Below, in pieces: positions 3,101 through 64,000 of a stretch of 64,000 nucleotides of DNA. A program made the translations under genes and the position numbers. Source of the stretch: Vicugna vicugna (Eukaryota); contig MU057576.1 of the NCBI GenBank assembly GCA_013265495.1, forward strand, positions 468,982 through 532,981. Reading direction: 5' to 3'. The notes beneath the pieces were generated by a model that made no database searches, was not told the DNA's origin, and saw only the letters and a list, made by a program, of their open reading frames with translations. Each line of letters begins with the position of its first letter. The stretch's first letter is position 1.

Positions 3101-6100
3101 GTTGTGGCTTGGACTTGGATGTGGGAAGTCAAGATGAGAAAAGTAAAACACACGTTTTAGAGAAAGAACTTGAAGGATTGGACGGTAGGGAGTGAGGAAG
3201 AGGAACGTATCAAATAATGGCCTGATTTCTGATTTAGCATTTCCTGAAATGGAAAAACTAAAAGAGCTTATACATGAAACAGAAAATTTACACTCCATCT
3301 AGCAGTGTATTAAAACACAAATGTTTATTAAAAATTTTTTTTAATTAAAAAAATATAAAAAATTAAAAATAAAAAATAAATAAAACACAAATGTTTAAAT
3401 GCGAAATAAAACACCTGCAAATACAATCCAAAGATTGTATAAGTGCTAACTGGGTGTGGAATAACAGTTTGACCCGGTAGGATATGGGAGATCAGGGCAG
3501 CACGGTAATGCATCTCTTTCACTATCAGAAACAGACTTCTTTTTTCCTGTTTCAAAGCCCACACTCCCTTTTAGCCCAGACGCCGCCCACTGAGTTCCTG
3601 TTTCCTATCTGAAGAACACGCATCTGTCTTTACAGAGCAGAGACCATAGATACCTCCTCACTGCTAAAGCCCAGCGGTTCCATTTCCTATGCCCAATTCT
3701 GCTTAATCCCTCAGGGTCTTGGGGAGCCCCTCGGGAGAAATTTCTCTCAAGGGACTTCAATACATTTTTAATTTATTTTTTCATTGAAGTATAGTCAGTT
3801 TGCAATGTTGTGTCAAAAAATACGGAACGCTTCACGAATCTGCCTGTCATCCTTGCTCAGGGGCCATGCTAATCTTCTCTGTGTCATTTCCATTTTAGTA
3901 CACGCACTGCTGAAGTAAGCACCAATACATTCTTATAGTACGTGATATTTTAAACACGTGCATTTTAATACGCTGCTAGATGGAGTGTAAATTTTCTGGA
4001 AAATGGCACCCTTCAACACTTCAATTCCAATGTTGAGAATATAACAGCCCAAGAAAACTATCAGAAACGGGAGCAAAGGTCTATATACCAGCATGCTTAT
4101 CTCAGTGTTATTTACAATGGTAAAAAAAAAAAATTGGAGGGTATGGTTAAATAGAGAAGTGGTAAAATTGAAATAGGGGAAAGGTAAAGGGAACAGTAAT
4201 TCAGCCAAACAATGAATACTGTGTAACCATAATAGTTCACAATAAGGATGGGCAAGAGTATTCTCTTCCGTCTGGCTTATGTTAGGTAAGATCAGAGTCT
4301 CTCTGCTTCTGAACTCGGGGTTTGAGAATCTATAGTTATTTATTCAACAAATATTTATTGAGCACTGTGTGCCAGGTACTGTGCTAGGGGCCAGAGAGAC
4401 CTCTTCTTGATCACTCCTCTCATGTGGAAACTCACAAGATGCAGTTGACCCATCACTAATAGATAACCCATTTTTTGTAGCACTTGCTAAGCGCTAGTCA
4501 CTCAACCAAGCTCTTTGAGTACTTTACCTCATTTAATCCTCGAGATAATTATGTGAGATAGAGATGGTTGTCCCCATTTTTACAGATGAAGAAGACTGAA
4601 GTCTGGAGAAATCAAGTAACTTGCAAAAGGTTACACAGCCACTGAAGTGGGCAAGTCAGAATTTGAGTGCAATTCAGTTGCCTGTATTAATTCATGCTTT
4701 GAACTCCTTGGCTAAATGCCCTTCTCCAGGTGTAGCCAGGTAAACACAGGCCACCACAGTGAGGGTCATTCTCCCTTCATGTACCACCCCACGCGTCTGT
4801 ACTTCCCTGGGCTCAAATTCACTTAAACTGATACTAGGTACTTGCTCCTTGCCCGTCTTGTGCTATTGTCTTCTCTACTCTGTGTTTGTTCCACCTCATT
4901 CAGATCCAAGACCAACACTCCTTTTCTGGGAAAGGGGGAGAAGCAAAATGGTGTTTGAATGGCTCTTCCTTCTTGCTTCTCACATGACATCTCTAAGCAC
5001 CAACATTATGGAGGGAAGCATTCTTCACAAGCTTCTGCTCATTCATTCAACAACAAATATTTTTGGAGTCCTTACTATGTGACAAGACTTATTTAGAGAC
5101 CTTCTTGGTCCTGTTATTACAAGTTTTCAGCACTTCCTTAACTCCCTCCTTGGTTCTGTATTCTTTCCTACACCTTTGTCATATGTCATCAGCTCCCCGC
5201 TTGAATCTCTTGACTTCTGTTCCTCTTCATGATGGTGTGATGTTCCCCTCCAGCTAATTTCTCATTCTGACTTCTGTCTTTCTGTTAATAGCAGCACCAC
5301 CATTGTCTACTCACCCAGGCTTGAAACCTCAGTCACTTTCAGCCTTCTCAGCCTTTACACCCACTTCATCACTAAGTCATATCAATTTTTTTCTCATGAT
5401 GTGAATTGTAACTGTCCTTTCCTTCCCATCCCCACTGCTTGTTCTTACCAAGACTTCTTCAGTAAACTCCCAACTGGCTTCCCTATCTCTGATCGCTCCC
5501 TCTTCTGACTTGCACTGCGCATTAGACCAGATTAACCCTGTTGGAGCATCCCCCATCACATATTGTTCTGTGACGCCAGAACTCCATGACTCAAGGCTTG
5601 CCTGCTCTAACCCCATAGCATCTACTGTGTATGTTTTGCCCTCTTCATTTTTATTATCACTCTCCTAGTTCAAGCCCCTTTTTACCTCTTTCCTTTAATA
5701 CTGCGATAATCTCGTAATTTGTCTTAGTCTCTTTAGTGTTTCCCCTTCCCAATCCACTTTCCATACTGCCACCAGACTAATCCTATTGAAACACAGCACT
5801 GAACCTGCCACTCTTCAGCTTAAACCTATTTTGTGACTTACTATTAATTATACTTTAAAGTCTATATTCCTTACTCAGGTATTCAGACTCCAGCCTTATC
5901 TCCCATTATTTCCCTCCCTGTATCATATAGTCCATCCAAATTAACATACAAACTTTAAATCGTCCTGTCTTTGAACTTACATTCAACTTGGCCTTTGTCC
6001 TATCTCCATCTGTTCAAATCCCACCCCGTTCTGAAAGACTCAGCTCAGATGGGGCTTCTACAATGAGGCCTTCCTGGATGCCTATATTTATCATTAGACC

Positions 6101-55255: not shown

Positions 55256-56889
55256 CCTGTCTACGGAGTGAAGCTGAGCTCATCTCATCACACTAGATCC
55301 TCCCTCAGGCTAGCACCTAGGCAGCCAGTCAGATTTAAAAGCCCAGAGTTAAGGGTCAAATGTAAATACTGGAACCTGAGTCCCAAGAAATGGTAGGCCA
55401 GGAGTAGAGAGAATTGGGTAAGCCACAGTCTGTACAGGGTAGGACCACTTCCTTAGCCTTCTATTTATTTGAGAGGAACTGATATGCCTCCATATCCCCA
55501 ACTTATGCCAAACCCATCCTATGCTCCCTTTTGGTCTATAAAAGTTCTTTTTCTATGGTGCCCAACTTGAGTTTGGTTTTGCAGCAGCATTTATAATATC
55601 TATGAGTTAGAGATGACACAGTACAAAAGACTTAGGGTCAACTGCAACAGTGATGTCCTCTTGCCTGGTTCCCATCTCTGGTTAAGCCTTTGTGCTATGA
55701 CTGACCTAGCTGTCATTAACATGGAACATGAGTAGTTTGACTACAGTTGGCCTCTGACCCTACCTAAAGCTCACTCCCCTCTATCATACTGCTCTTGCCT
55801 ACAGGGGAGGCAGACAAAATCTTCCCTCTTGTCTTCATACAACTTCAGTCCTCTCCTTCCTAAACCTCAGGGCTATGGCAACTATACCCAGCCTCTCAAC
55901 TTTCCATCAACAGGCTTCCCGGCAGCGCCTGGCCCACCGAACCAGCTCAAGTTTTTCTAGCAACTCCAGGCACATCATGCTTTTCTCTTTCCAGCTGGGT
56001 TATTCCTTTCCCTTTTCTTCCCTCGGACTAGTGACTTTGATATCCTCAATCATCTTGCATGTTGTAAATGTGTTTATAAAAATTGGTGGAAAGAAACATT
56101 TAATCCTTAGAACTCTGCTTTTCTTCTCAGAATTTCCTCCCTTAGACATTCTGTCTGTTCTCATCATTCCATCTAACTATGCCTCTATGTGGATGTCGGC
56201 ATTTTTCCAGAATTTACTCTCTAGGTCTAACATTTAGTTTTGCCTGCAGAGTTCATCTTGATCCTATCTTCCCAATTTCCCCTTCATCATACACAACATC
56301 GTTGATTTCTTGATCCTTTACATTTCCAACCTTGTAATTATCTTTGATTATTTTTAGGCCTGTCACTTCCTAATTACTTGCCGAATTCGGCTCACCCTAA
56401 CACCACTGGGCCCATTAACTTTGTCCATTGCTTTCCGCCCCGCCTTCCCTCTCTGTCTCCGAGGGACACCAGAGCCAGATTAGTGTTCCTAGATTTTCTC
56501 TTCATTGGGTGTTTAAGTATCCGTCTCGCCTGCCACCCAGGCGCACTGTTAGGCCCAAGTGGGAGGACATAGTCAGCAGGTTAAACACACATGGACAACA
56601 TGAGGCTCAAAGTCCAGAAGGAATCCTTAGCGATTATTTAACAGTTGATGGATGGATGCCCAGCGTGGATAACTCTCTGGTTCCTGTCAGTCAGTCAGAC
56701 TGTCGGTCTCCAGCACCTCCTCCATTACTCTGCTGTTGTTGGCGTCTTCCTTCCTTCCTTTACGATCTGGTACAGTCCCAGCCCGCGGGGGCTGCAGCCG
56801 CCCCATCCCAGCGGTGCGTGTAACCTGCTCCAGCCCTCCGAACTCCAGCTCCGACCCACCCACAGAAGGAGCCGGAGTCCCTCGAGAGA

Positions 56890-57038
56890 GAGCAGCCATT
56901 GGCCAGCCTACCCCACCTCCCCGCACCTCATTGGCTGCCGTACTTCAGGTCCCGCCCCCTCAGCGGGTTCCAGCAGCCGGGCCAACAGTGGAAGTGAAAA
57001 ATGGCGGGAAAGGCCGCGTTTCTGCGCTCCAGGTAACG
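56890..57038 (+). promoter_or_regulatory. Candidate antisense promoter and first exon downstream of the TLX2 stop
   Basis: ATTGG x2 (56898, 56930), CCCGCCCC 56951, GGAAGTG 56990, AAAATGGCGG about 56998, GGCGGGAAA 57003, donor CAG|GTAACG at 57032/57033. Confidence 0.5.
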
Positions 57039-57235
57039 GCTCAATGCTGGCCTGGGAGCCCGCGGTGGCTGAGGAGCCCTCGACGGTAGCCTCAAGGCCA
57101 GCTCCTCCTCACACGCTCCACTGCCGCGGGACCGCCACGTGGGCGGCCGTGCGCTCCAAGGCCCTGGGCCCGGCGCTCCACGCCGCGCCTCGGTCCGGAA
57201 AAGAGCGCTCGGCCGGTCAGTCAGTCAGGCGTCGC

Positions 57236-58642
57236 TCACACCACCGAGGCGAGCCCGGACACGGAAGCCACCTTGTTGTCCTCGGCCCAGGGCTGCAGGT
57301 TCTGCAGCGCGAAGAGCGACGAGTTGTGCAGGCAGAGCGGGTCCGGGGGCAGCGGCGGCCGCAGCGGTCGCGGTAGCGCGTCCTGCTGCAGGTGCAGAAG
57401 CAGCCGGCCCGCGCGGTGCCGCTCCGCCTCGCGCTCCTCGGCCGTCTGGCGCCTGGGCGGGCGGAGACGCGGGGTCAGCGAGGCCGGCCCTCGCCCGCCC
57501 CGCGCCGCGCCTCACCGCCACTTGGCCCGGCCCGGTCCCTCGCCCACCCCGCGCCTCACCGCCACTTGGTGCGCCGGTTCTGGAACCACGTCTTGACCTG
57601 CGCGTCAGTCATGCGCAAGGCCTTGGCCAGCGCCGCCCTCTCGGCCGAGGCCAGGTACTTCTGGCGCAGGAAGCGCCGCTCCAGCTCCAGCACCTGCGAG
57701 CGGGAGAAAGACGTGCGCGGCTTCTTCCGCTTCGGGGGCGTCCGGTTTTGGTAGGGGTGACCTATACGGCGCGTCCCGGAGAAGGGCGAGAGCGCGGCTA
57801 CAGGGAGGAAGAAAGCAAGGCAGGGTTTTCGGGGCGGCCCGAGGTGTCACTGAGACGAGAGCATGGCTGCGCAGGCCGCAGAGCTCCCGCACCGCGTCCC
57901 TACCCCTGCCCCAAGCTCGGCCCCCCGAATCAGTAGAGGCTTCCAGATGAGAAAGGGCCTCGGAAACGCCCCCCACCTTGGGTGAGGGAGAGACGTCCCG
58001 GTAACTTCACCCTGCCCTCCCGGCGGTGTGGACAGCGGACTGCAGAGGAGGGCGCGGGTGTCGACGGCAGCTACCTCCCCAGCGCCTCTCAGCAGTGGGA
58101 CCAAGAGATACAAGTTGAGGGAAGATCCCCTGGGATGAGGAGCGGAGGGTATGAAAGGGGACCTTGAGTTGGAGCAGAAGGATCAAAGATGAGGAAACCG
58201 GGTCAGTGTGGGCAGGATGCTGGAGGGATTGGGCAACCTTACCCGTGAGCCGGTCCTTGGCATAGCGGCGGCCGCTGTCCATCCAAGGAAAGGTGAGTCC
58301 CGCTAGGCCCCCGGCGCCGCCCAAGCCTGAGGGCCCAGGAACCGCAGGCGCGCCTCCCGCGGGCGGCTGCACTGGCAGCGGGCGGTGCGCTGGGACGCGG
58401 ATCACGCCTCCCGGGCCCACACCAGAGCTGCCTGGTAGCGGGGTCAGCGAGCCCGCGGGGCCGTAGCTCGAGGCTCCGTGAAATCCACCCGAGAACGCCG
58501 CACTCTCCCCATGGCCCTGGCCGGCGCGACCCAGGCCTAGGCCGCTCCCGGGGGGTTCCGGGCAGCTCAGGATCTGATCGATGCCGAAGCTGATTGGCTC
58601 GTGGTGAGGGAGGTTGTGCGATGCCAGCACCGCCGGCTCCAT
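57236..58642 (-). CDS. TLX2: T-cell leukemia homeobox 2 (Ncx/Hox11L1), 284 aa
   Basis: Exons 58642-58243 (eh1 FGIDQIL, FPWM hexapeptide), 57797-57560 (homeodomain RKKPRTSFS...[12 protein letters not shown]), 57452-57236 (ends GLASVV*); 855 nt. Confidence 0.97.
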
Positions 58643-60260
58643 GGGTCCGGGTCAAGGAGGACTGCAAGAGGTTTGGCGGTTGGGGACTGCGCCCAAACAG
58701 CTCTGGTGCCCAGCAGCGGAGCTCTCCGGGCGGTGGCCTCAGGGGCCCGCGGGGCTGGCCGCGGAGAGGCGCCGGGGCCCCCAGGACATCTTCATCCCTG
58801 TGTGCTGGGAGTTACCGCGCCCGTGCCGGCCTCTGCCGGGCGTCGGCTGAGGAACTCGCATCCCGGGGGAGCGCGACTGACCGGGGCCCCAGGAGCGCCC
58901 TTCCTAGCTTTGAAGTGAAGGTGGACGCTGGGCTGCTGGGGCCTCTGCCTGAGTCCGAGGTGGAGAGGGTTAGCCGGCTCCGGCTGGGGCTGTGACTGAC
59001 AGATCAGCCTTGGGTGGGCAGTCGGGGCTGGGGGTAGGGCAGGGGCGGGGCCGGTCCCGTTAAAGGGGAAGAGACTCCTGTTTGCGCCCAGCGCGGGGAA
59101 GACTGGCCCGCGGGAACGGTGGGAGTGTTGTGGGGGGGAGGTGGCGATGGTGTTTTGAACCAGGCTATGCACGGGAGGGGCCCGAGCTTGGGCCATTGAG
59201 CGCTGAGTCAGCCGAGATGCGCAAGGCAACTCCATCCTCGCTGGCTTCTGTCTTTGGGCTTCCTCGGCCTCACCGACTTCAGCAGGTGCCTCGTCCCACT
59301 GCCCCCACTCTTCGCCTCCCGATGGGTCCTGCCTGACGACTCTCAGATTCGTTGTGGCCCCCGCCTAAACGCTCTTGGAGACTAAATCTCGTTGTGACTT
59401 TCTGGCTGCGATGGAAAGTGGCTAGGGAACGGCACCGGCGAGTTGGAGGCCCGGAAAGAGGACAAGTGTGGGAAGGCGGTGGCAGAGCGTCTGGTGGGCT
59501 AGGGCGGGGAACAACTGCTCTGAGCCAGTGATCCTGGTGCACATCCCGGCCTCTCCCGTAGGGCCCCTAGCTCCTTACGGGAGCGTCAGTAATGGGTGCC
59601 CAGTGTTTCTTAGAATTTTGATTTTCTGAAATCGGTGTAAAAAGGACCAGTGGCTGAACCGGGTCAACTCATGTCGGTGAGGACTTGGGGCTGGCGTTCA
59701 GCCCCCGAATGGGGACGACCAACGCAAGACTCTGCCCCTGTGCCTAGGAAGTCTATTCTCACACACTCTGGCCCCTCCAAAGACGGGAGGACGAAATCGC
59801 CACAGGCGACATGTGGGACCTCACCGAAGTCTTCAGAGGATCCCAACCGCCTCATTTAGCATAGATGCTTCACCCCACCCAAGCCCAGGAAACCGTGCCT
59901 GGAGCGTGTCAGAGAAGGGAGGTAGGGAAAGACGAAGCCGCTCGGTGACCTTGTGACCTCTGGCTGCGGACCCAGGAGCTGAGAGTGTGTGAACTCTGCA
60001 TCCTTCCCCGGAATGGGACCCCGGGCCGGCCGGGCCCCTGCGCCTTAGACCCGCCCCTGCCGCCACCCGGCCCGGTGCAGGCCGCCATAATCGGGTTAGC
60101 TGGGTCGGAATTACATTACCTTCCCCGGCCCGCCCCGGCCCTGGGATGGGGGGTTGGGGGGGCTGGCGCCTCCGAGCCGGTGAGACTGGGCGCCTGGAGG
60201 GGGATGTTCCTACCATCCCTTGGAGGGTGGGCACCGAGGAGCAGCTTGGCCTGCGTCAGA
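58643..60260 (-). promoter_or_regulatory. TLX2 5'UTR/promoter CpG island and upstream element
   Basis: CpG-rich; TGACTGACAG 58993-59002 (PBX-MEIS/PREP-type), GC box 59042-59050, TAAT cluster 60088-60118. Confidence 0.65.
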
Positions 60261-63200
60261 CACGTGGTTCCCAAAGGACCCCCGCCCCTGTGCCAGCCCT
60301 AGCCCCTCAACCCCAACCCACTCTGGTGCCGTGGTCCAGGCTGCCCGATACCCTTGTGAGCCAAAATGCCTTCTGAGGCTAGTGGATAGGTCTCCCTGGG
60401 AGCACGGATCTTCCGGTTCATTCTCCAGGGTTTCCCAGGAAAAACTCTGCCCCTCCTTTCTCCCCAGCAGATGGGCTGGCAGCCTGGCGCCTAGGGCAGT
60501 GTAAGGGGTCTTTTCTCTCCAGGGAACCAAGAATGATATTTGGGCATCTGGGCAGGAAGAAAGAGAAGAGAAAGAAGGCAGTGGGGTTTCTCCCCACACA
60601 AAGCCAGCAGTCCCTCAGTGTTCTCAAAGCTTCAGTTTGAAGGGGGTGAATGATGGGGGAGGGAGGGGTGAACATTAATAATATGTGACATCCTCCCCCA
60701 ACCTTGTCCACCTCCATCATCCAGTTTCTCCAGCCCTTTCCCCTTCCTACCAACAGCCACCTTCTGAAAGGGGTGGGGGTCCTACCACGTTGGCAGCTGT
60801 TTCTGGTGAAGAAGATGTCTCCTCCCCTAAGCCTTCACAGAACTCCAAGCACCTTTTCTTTGCAGCAGTGGAGGGGCTGAGGCTACTAGGGAGCATGAGT
60901 CCCCTGCCGCTCAGGTAAACACTTCGGAGGTATCATGGGCTAGATTCCCCCAGATGAGACCAGAGAGCCTAGGAAGACAGTGAAGTAAATAAAGTATCCG
61001 AAGAGGGGCTGGCCTGCATGTTAGGAGTTTGCCATTCCCTTTTCCCACTCTAGCGGTGGGCCTCTGGTTAGACAGATTGGAGGCACTCATGTGTCTCCAA
61101 TCAAGCTGAATAAATCCTTCTCAAATGAATCAGTGACTGAACCAATGAAGGGGAAAAAGGCAGCATCGTGCAGACCTGTATGTCTGCTTACTGTACATCC
61201 TACCTTTCGAGGTCAGCACAGATGGCACTGCCACCCAGAGATTGCCCAAATGATTGATTCCTGGAGGAGAATGGTCACAAACCCAGTAATACACATCTTC
61301 TGAGGAATATATATATATATACATTGCTCCACTTCAAGGCCAAAAGGTATCCAGTTCTGTCAACCACAGTCCTAGGAATTTCTCTGCTTGCCTCTTCCTT
61401 GCTGATTTCCTGATTCTCTGAAAAGGATGGTTCCTGCTAGTTTATGTTGATGATGGAGGCTCTGGGGTCAGCACCATTACCTCCCATACACACTGCCTTG
61501 GATCCATCTCACTATATCCTTCCTACATGCACATGGCCACTCAAGTCGTCAAGTTTTCATGCCTTCAAACCGCAGCTTCACAGGGAGAGGCCATGTTCCC
61601 AGCCTGTGCTCCCGCATCTTCTCTTCCTTTCTGCTCTTGGTCTGGTGTCTTTCCCTCGAGATGGTCCCAATTCTTGTATCATCATTTCTTTCATCAACTT
61701 AGTCCTTCCTACCCACAACTGTTTTAGGTCTATATTATCTGAACAAAGTCTTTGCCTAACTCTTTAAGAGAAATTATTTTTTTCTTTTTCCCTTTTACTG
61801 CCCATACCCACGGCCTCCCTTTCCTCATTATTTATTCTTTTCACCCACTGCAAGCTGGCTTCACTACGTGGACCCTTTCTCAGAGAGCTCCAGTGTCCGG
61901 TGTCTATTATCCGGAACTTCTCTGAAACAGTTTTTGTTGTTGCTGACCATCAACTATTTCTTAAAATGTCCCTTCTTTTAGCTTCTGTAATATTTGTCTT
62001 ATTCTACATCTTTAGACATTTACAGTCAATGCTTATGTTTTCCCTCCAGTGACTTTTCTTCTTCCACTGAAGACTGTGAACATTCTTCAGAGCTCAGACT
62101 TCAGCTTTACCCATCTCTACATCCGTTCAGGTTTCACCCACTCCAATAGTTCCATCTATTACATTTACCCACAAAACTCTCAGACCTCTGTCCCTGGTTC
62201 TGACATTTGCTGTACTCCACCCCACCATTCTTGTTTTCAGGCCAGCTCCATCTGCTTTTGCTGTAGCCACCTTAAGTGCAAAAGGCTGGAGGACATGCTT
62301 CCCCTCAAGCTCCTTATTCACTTCCTCTTATTATTCTTTTCTTTGAAATGTTTCATCTGTAGCCCTTCCTTTCCATTTCCAGAGATAAAAAGGCTAATGT
62401 AGGCCATCATTACCACCATCACCTACATGCATATATTCATCCAGAAAATTTTGATTGAACACCTACTTTGTGCCTGGCACTGGAGATACAGCTGTAAATG
62501 CAACAACAATCACTGCCATTGAGCAGTTTACATTCTAGTGGGGAAGGCAGGTGAAAAACAAGAAAATATATAAAACATGCTTAATAATAAAAATGCTAAT
62601 AAAAAATAAAGCAAGGAAGGGGAAGAAGAAGTGTAAGAGTGGGGAATTATGATTTATCTAGACTGATCACAGAAGGCCTCATGGAGTAAAAACCAAAAGG
62701 AAGAAAATGACCATTTGGATATCTGAGCATTTCAAGTTGGAGACACAGTGGGAATATATCCTAGTGTATCTGTGGGACAAACAGTGAGGGATCCAGTGTG
62801 GCTGGAGAGACGCAGTGACTGCAAGAGACCATGAAAGGCCTTGACCGCTGTAAGGAGTTGGGTTTTTATTCTAATTGAAAAGGGAAGCTATTGCAAGGTT
62901 TTAAACAGAAAAGTAAGGCAACTTATTTTCAAATTTTATTTTAAACAGCTTCCTTAAGGTAAAATACATACAATAATCTATATATATTTAAAGTGTACAG
63001 TTTGATAAGTTGACATGTTTACACCCATGAAGTCATCAACATAATCAAGATAATAAATATCCATCAACTGAAAAGCTTTCCTTGTATCCTTTTTTATATG
63101 TTTTTACCAGAATCACTCTGAGCTGCTACGTTGAGTATAAGCTAAAGAGGGGTAAAAAAGGAGGCAAGATGCCACTGTAATTATCCAGAAGAGAGGTGAT

Positions 63201-64000
63201 GGCATCTCGGACCAGGGAGATAAGCAGTGGCTATAGTGAGAAGTAGCTGATTAAAAACTCACTAAACTTGTAACTTCCTGCTGCTTATCCACTCTAATTC
63301 ACTCTGAAGACAAACGAACAAATATGTTTCTTTCATAGGATAACTCCCTCCCTACAAAAACGTATTTTAGTTACATAGTGCCCTGAGGCTATAGTCCCAA
63401 TTCCGTTAGGCCCTGCTGCTTCGATCCCTACTCTCAAATCTACATCTTGGCCTCCTTATATTCCCGCTCCTTTCATTCCCCTCCACTTTGCCTTTCTTTT
63501 CTATTCCCACCACACTTCTCACCCCTACCCGCACCCCTAGTCTCTAAATTTTACCCACACAAATCCCACTTCCTCCTGAAAGTCTTTCAGGGTCTCTACT
63601 GGGATCTCTCCTTTCTTGAGTCTCCAATTGCACTTGATGTTAATACTTCATAGTAATCTTACCTCTTTTTTTTTTTTGACTCATAGTAATCTTACCCTTG
63701 TTTTGTTTTGTCTCGTTTTCTAATCTCTCTTTTGCCCAGGGACATCGATGTACCAGCTCTAGGGCCCCGACGTCCTCCCCAAGTACAAGACTGGGCCTAT
63801 GCTACTGCAGAAGCTCTCTGCCTCAGCGTGTCTGTGTGCGGTAGTGTCCTAGCCGCCCTCCCCTCCTTCTTGGGCATCTGCTCTGCATTAGTCTGTCCCA
63901 GGCCTCCGCAGGCGCCGGTGATTGAATCATCATCATTAACCAGGGCCTGCCCCCCCTGCCCCAATTCTCGGCGGCAGCGGGGAGGAAGGGGCGGGGGTAA

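Follow-up and report, generated by a model that had tools for sequence, protein, structure and literature searches.

At homeobox genes, CpG-island promoters located within the gene or at its 3' end form a known class that gives rise to antisense non-coding RNAs, and housekeeping promoters in which a YY1 motif overlaps the start codon are another class. TLX2 is a homeobox gene of the enteric and autonomic nervous system, and we know of no annotated gene start at the element in its 3' UTR that is described here. In human cells TLX2 is a strong PRC1 target (PMC4109945), and LBX2-AS1, a nearby antisense example, is named in PMC10533500. CCAAT boxes are described as lying 40-100 bp upstream of transcription starts in either orientation, and NF-Y as able to bind Polycomb-repressed chromatin (PMC3730095). 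Promoters co-occupied by NF-Y and E2F are reported in PMC4889920. Germline promoters silenced by E2F6/PRC1.6 carry a TCCCGC site (PMC8195999).

The stretch of camelid DNA analysed here (64,000 nucleotides, hereafter the window) contains a compact cluster of such sites beyond the TLX2 stop codon. Judged by its conservation, this promoter-type element is real. With modest confidence, we read it as an NF-Y/NF-Y/(Sp)/E2F element at the island edge, within the TLX2 3' UTR, that would drive a non-coding antisense RNA.

The TLX2 locus and its motif cluster

TLX2 occupies 58642-57236 of the - strand and is intact, its three exons encoding 284 aa (Table 1). The element lies 200-340 bp beyond its stop and, because it precedes the closest - strand hexamers of poly(A) type (56213, 56099 and 56073), is probably part of the TLX2 3' UTR. 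The CpG observed/expected ratio rises into the island, from 0.50 at 56300-56700 through 0.64 over the element to 0.91 at 57040-57235.

Table 1. Coordinates, within the window, of TLX2 and of the features of the element beyond its stop codon.
Feature	Position	Strand	Remarks
TLX2 coding exon 1	58243..58642	-	855-nt CDS in all, GT-AG introns
TLX2 exon 2 (homeodomain)	57560..57797	-	Pfam PF00046, E 7.5e-21; PDB 3a03_A (TLX2), E 7.9e-28
TLX2 coding exon 3	57236..57452	-	Stop at 57236-57238
CpG island over TLX2	56700..60300	.	Element at low-coordinate edge
CCAAT box 1 (predicted NF-Y site)	56894..56906	-	ATTGG on + at 56898-56902
CCAAT box 2 (predicted NF-Y site)	56926..56938	-	ATTGG on + at 56930-56934
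GC box (Sp/KLF type)	56951..56958	.	CCCGCCCC at 56951
ETS core, lineage-restricted	56990..56996	+	GGAAGTG at 56990
YY1-type motif AAAATGGCGG	56998..57007	+	Contains ATG (57001); retained by only some lineages
Predicted E2F site	57003..57013	.	GGCGGGAAA at 57003; TTTCCCGC on -
Candidate splice donor	57030..57038	+	CAG/GTAACG, cut 57032/33; plausible in the camelid genome, not conserved
11-codon mini-ORF (unspliced)	57001..57036	+	No sign of coding constraint
Putative + strand transcription start zone	56970..57030	+	40-100 bp from box 2; placed from NF-Y position in PMC3730095

All seven motifs on which the original prediction of a promoter and first exon was built were found by a sequence check where it had placed them. 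The two ATTGG boxes (56898 and 56930) are 32 bp apart, both match the extended RRCCAATSR on the - strand, and they form the sole same-orientation pair spaced by 29-35 bp within the 64 kb. Using motif patterns that were written to fit the element and chosen post hoc, which inflates the result, six motif classes within a 200-bp stretch were obtained in 0 of 20,000 dinucleotide shuffles and five classes in 3; since the patterns were fitted in this way, the shuffle test shows an unusual cluster and not a working one. When every 200-bp segment of the window was scanned in both orientations, five or six classes were found only over the element, and the CpG-rich gene starts in the window reached a maximum of three with identical patterns. 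A CHR element of the TT[C/T]GAA or TT[C/T]AAA type had no match in 56700-57300.

On the + strand, the ATG within the YY1-type motif has a purine at -3, a G at +4 and a splice donor downstream, the ATG-to-donor distance being 32 nt. Read unspliced, the mini-ORF encodes 11 aa (MAGKAAFLRSR) and ends in a TAA within the donor, with an in-frame TGA (56995) just 5' of its ATG. The donor scores 7.8 bits, ranking fourth among the 200 + strand GT sites of 56400-60500 and falling within the 6.1-11.4 range of seven DQX1 and TLX2 donors, as scored with a frequency matrix against comparison donors chosen by eye.

The window also holds one family of tRNA-type short repeats, which we take to be a camelid family. 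Fragments of three neighbouring genes gave no match when tried against Pfam, and these genes, presumably DQX1, HTRA2 and AUP1, are named here in line with the synteny given in PMC2446394. Downstream of the DQX1 stop (~55253), no AATAAA or ATTAAA occurs on the + strand as far as 57300, where the only related hexamers are TATAAA at 55537 and 56075, making DQX1 read-through toward the element possible. An inverted repeat of 48 nt (3280-3327 and 3951-3998; 90% complementary, 623 nt apart) possibly marks the two termini of an ancient DNA transposon. The shared promoter region that we take to be that of AUP1/HTRA2 likewise combines a YY1-type motif with GGCGGGAA on the + strand (45851 and 45958).

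Conservation of the element among mammals

Conservation was read from chance gene calls (ORFs) on the contigs of other mammals in protein collections. A search with one + strand frame returned three matches, one of which (P0009, an unrelated repeat protein) was removed from the ortholog set, and a four-sequence profile search returned 11 matches among the 8,000 candidates scored. Eleven ORF clusters were colinear with 56550-57500; one sequence per cluster (P0015 standing for the P0010 cluster) was aligned to the window DNA with frameshifts allowed, and the bases fixed or excluded by each ortholog residue were counted. As the orthologs are known via their translations, third codon positions are mostly not fixed. 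Divergence between the orthologs and the camelid amounts to 16-25% of fixed bases, and divergence among the orthologs themselves to 8-37%; because some are clearly related to each other, the 11 do not amount to 11 independent trials. Baselines were provided by the whole UTR, where 2055 of 3034 fixed bases matched, and by a TLX2 coding control (309/327). A metagenome scan with TLX2 exon 3 gave 24 loci, with best identities of 34-73% over part of the query, which were taken as non-mammalian Tlx relatives and left unused.

Both CCAAT boxes and the E2F site are conserved at the level of the TLX2 coding sequence. Over the 11 orthologs, box 1 matches at 41 of 42 fixed bases and box 2 at 37 of 38, each being compatible in 10 of the 11. 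The E2F site matches at 43 of 44 fixed bases. The 10-mer at 57004-57013, within the E2F site, is the most conserved of the whole UTR, with a forced mismatch in none of nine orthologs, and the second is the G-rich stretch beside box 2 (56919-56928). The YY1-type 10-mer matches at 48 of 53 fixed bases; the GC box matches at 38 of 41 in its core hexamer and 47 of 58 over the full 8-mer, and taken alone is not beyond chance. The proportion of same-length UTR segments that are as conserved is 0.9% for the E2F site, 3.5% and 3.9% for boxes 1 and 2, 5.7% for the YY1-type motif, 22.6% for the GC box, 70% for the ETS site and 97% for the donor, so that three of the seven motifs (both CCAAT boxes and the E2F site) stand at or below the 5% level (binomial p 0.004).

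Spacing has been kept as well. The two boxes are 30-32 bp apart in 10 of 11 orthologs, and in 8 of 9 the distance between box 2 and the E2F site is 75-82 bp, although indels are frequent nearby. The spacing of exactly 32 bp that had been singled out is thus not special, given this range and the peaks for double CCAAT boxes in PMC4889920 (24-27 and 36 bp genome-wide, 26-30 bp at cell-cycle promoters). When all motif blocks were pooled as originally named, 234 of 301 bases matched, a value equalled by 1,398 of 20,000 random placements (p 0.07, borderline); the four best cores, a post hoc selection, gave 152 of 157, equalled by none of 20,000. On these alignments, the two CCAAT boxes and the predicted E2F site, at kept distances, are shown to be under selection across mammals.

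The UTR also contains conserved blocks with no assignment at 56657-56760 and 57056-57110 (e.g., 56744, 56709, 56677 and 57101), of which those at 56744, 57101 and 56709 nearly match the motif blocks in conservation.

The ETS site and the features that would define a coding first exon fared differently. The ETS site matches at only 20 of 34 fixed bases and is compatible in two of nine orthologs. Among the nine orthologs that reach the ATG, five are compatible with it and four have lost it, together with the YY1 core: in P0011, P0019 and P0021 the loss reads as Trp to Arg in one frame, and in P0024 it is seen directly as Met to Thr within the mini-ORF frame. A further cluster member, P0031, has also lost the ATG. 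The mini-exon body (57014-57032) matches at 44 of 98 fixed bases, below the UTR average, and has deletions in P0024 and P0026. The donor matches at 22 of 57 and is lost in at least three of nine orthologs, since P0020 has a change at +1, P0023 carries an altered version and P0024 a deletion; that of P0026 could not be aligned. Since P0031 fixes the donor GT to GC, loss is likely in P0011 and P0019 too, and for the same reason the idea of a donor kept through -1/+5 compensation in the S-K lineages, to which P0031 is related, was dropped. P0015, P0018 and P0021 remain compatible with the donor, their residues leaving the +2 base unfixed.

The alignments thus give neither a micro-peptide nor an exon end that mammals have in common, and against the UTR and coding baselines a conserved coding mini-exon is not supported. 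With the ATG, donor, exon body and ETS site not kept, the conserved object is the NF-Y/NF-Y/(Sp)/E2F element and not a coding first exon. The multi-species comparison that the original prediction had suggested, run here on translated ORFs, therefore upholds that prediction in part: the CCAAT boxes and E2F site are conserved in other mammals, whereas the ETS site, the ATG/YY1 motif and the donor are not.

A probable antisense promoter and its alternatives

Under the antisense-promoter reading, two NF-Y trimers bound three helical turns apart would open the chromatin, as knowledge of this protein family suggests. Judging from the geometry, polymerase would initiate chiefly in the + direction around 56970-57030, a start that would coincide with the E2F site or slightly precede it, and the product would be a non-coding RNA running antisense into TLX2 and tuned by E2F factors. 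Selection keeps the factor sites but neither a peptide nor a set exon boundary. The camelid ATG would be a by-product of the meeting of an A-rich run with the E2F site, whereas the donor of this genome may be used while being optional. The camelid YY1-type motif and the usable-looking + strand donor point the same way, fitting a + strand promoter direction. Against this reading, the two features that give direction (ATG/YY1 and donor) are the unconserved ones, and the pooled motif blocks reach only the borderline value given above. Read in the orientation of the boxes, the E2F site is found on their 5' side, and on the sign convention that we infer it is not at the offsets of +6/+7, +31, +55 and +72 given in PMC3730095.

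A TLX2 3' UTR promoter or antisense RNA was not described in the titles and abstract openings of the literature searched, and the element may possibly be marked already in genome-browser annotation (CAGE, cCRE or lncRNA models) of human or mouse tracks. Two files of PMC10760527 and seven of PMC8256860 (file 1 left out), both testis antisense catalogues, had no entry for Tlx2, Pcgf1 or Dqx1, and three supplementary files of PMC4994865 (file 1 left out), consulted on NF-Y, E2F or DREAM binding and cell-cycle-regulated RNA, gave no match.

A sequencing-run index queried with 111 bases over the element (eight sampled words) returned 24 rows. Fourteen were RNA or RNA-guess contig rows from seven studies, holding five of the eight words in ten rows, four in four rows and all eight in none; four rows of ~2,000 million letters, from one study, held all eight, and six raw-read rows were entered by label only. 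An RNA spliced at 57032 would be expected to hold ~65% of words (53/81). The only partial-word holder recorded as RNA was X10, a reproductive-tract sample. A related species with one changed base would fit equally, and the rows with four or five words were not counted as evidence; the partial-word holders carry an organism code unlike that of the full matches.

A second reading, to which we give limited credence, is that the element is an enhancer or island-border element, bound by NF-Y, Sp and E2F factors, that keeps the CpG-island edge open or unmethylated or limits the Polycomb domain, and yields only short unstable bidirectional RNA. Its position exactly at the island edge would suit this role, as would the fact that only orientation-free factor sites are conserved. 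NF-Y sites are, moreover, mostly away from annotated promoters (only 22% fall in the 1 kb that precedes a RefSeq start, and as many as 25% are enhancers), and the factor binds repressed chromatin (PMC3730095). The compact layout of two boxes, GC box and E2F site with a fixed 75-82 bp gap is nevertheless that of a proximal promoter, and the YY1-type motif found in five of nine orthologs as well as in the camelid also speaks for a promoter.

The option raised in the original prediction, that the element provides PCGF1 with a distal first exon, and thus with an alternative promoter, is unlikely. The RNA would in that case cross TLX2, be spliced to PCGF1 and thereby gain a longer leader with a small uORF. 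By the synteny in PMC2446394, PCGF1 lies beyond TLX2 and outside the window, and the 7.8-bit donor could be joined to candidate + strand acceptors at 60468 and 63740, while other lineages could rely on the consensus + strand donor at 58292. Nine candidate acceptors passed a simple filter, the best-looking being that at 63740, whose frame is open to the window end. The donor and ATG are, however, unconserved. The frame ending at the donor found no match among 86 candidates, a weak test for a 10-residue match, and the frame opened by acceptor 63740 found four, all colinear chance ORFs with frameshifts and none with the mini-exon peptide, one having Met where the acceptor AG would be expected. 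No protein joining the mini-exon to downstream sequence was obtained in a search that is weak for ten residues, only colinear chance ORFs.

Two downstream features are recorded here in their own right. A full-consensus + strand donor at 58290-58298, antisense in TLX2 coding exon 1, scores 12.0 bits, the best of the 200 GT sites in 56400-60500, and could be used by an antisense RNA. The segment at 63741-63965, where the next GC-rich region starts, has 72-85% translated identity in other mammals; it follows a good-looking + strand acceptor (63740), contains an AT-rich homeodomain-like motif near 63920-63940, appears non-coding because of frameshifts in the orthologs, and is probably upstream of PCGF1.

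A more speculative and improbable reading is that the promoter responds to proliferation or to the germline state and sends its RNA across the Polycomb-silenced TLX2 island into PCGF1, which encodes a PRC1.1 subunit. PCGF1 would then owe a share of its expression to a site within a PRC1 target domain, forming a local feedback loop, and the tumour 'TLX2' signal would be partly antisense RNA counted in unstranded sequencing. According to PMC10533500, that signal is raised in many tumour types, whereas in testicular tumours it is lower than in normal testis.

That the motifs cluster by chance because the UTR is GC-rich, or that they are elements of the TLX2 3' UTR acting at the RNA level and merely resembling factor sites, would accord with the pooled p value, the near-equal UTR blocks and the fitted shuffle patterns, but is very improbable given that the conserved blocks coincide exactly with the pair of CCAAT boxes plus the E2F site, with spacing kept, and that Rfam gave zero matches across 55600-64000.

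Significance and comparison with known promoter classes

At present, the locus adds one more conserved promoter-type element within a developmental CpG island. If it is an antisense promoter, TLX2 would have a conserved regulator in its own tail, through which Tlx2 alleles or UTR variants could act, and TLX2 values from unstranded RNA-seq or qPCR could mix in opposite-strand RNA. If it also feeds PCGF1, a Polycomb subunit would be tied to its Polycomb-silenced neighbour.

The camelid element resembles the YY1/ATG housekeeping promoters in its AAAATGGCGG motif, with purine at -3, G at +4 and a donor following. In those promoters the ATG opens a conserved protein, whereas here it is lost in four of nine orthologs and the exon body is unconstrained.

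The TCCCGC site on a CpG island, with an E-box 125 bp away, is reminiscent of the E2F6/PRC1.6-silenced germline promoters. The E-box (CACGTG, 57136-57141) was lost in all four orthologs checked by eye. Among the 2,533 E2F6 peaks of mouse ES cells in the tables of PMC8195999, searched with coordinate prefixes, none is assigned to Tlx2, Pcgf1, Dqx1, Aup1, Htra2 or Lbx2, and Tlx2, Pcgf1 and Dqx1 are not up in its E2F6 knockout tables, outside which an unannotated antisense RNA would fall. An E2F6-silenced germline promoter was set aside, as these mouse ES-cell tables give it no support.

Growth and cell-cycle genes have NF-Y/E2F promoters with several CCAAT boxes, as described in PMC4889920 and PMC3730095. 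These share with the element two same-orientation boxes about three turns apart, a nearby GC box and an E2F site, all of them conserved, and a CpG island. Unlike them, the element lies in the 3' UTR of another gene, has no CHR and has an E2F offset outside those listed there.

The promoters of homeobox antisense RNAs offer a further likeness, as the element belongs to the CpG island of a homeobox gene targeted by Polycomb and would face into that gene. It also shares with them the combination of conserved promoter-type sites and a poorly conserved body of the putative transcript.
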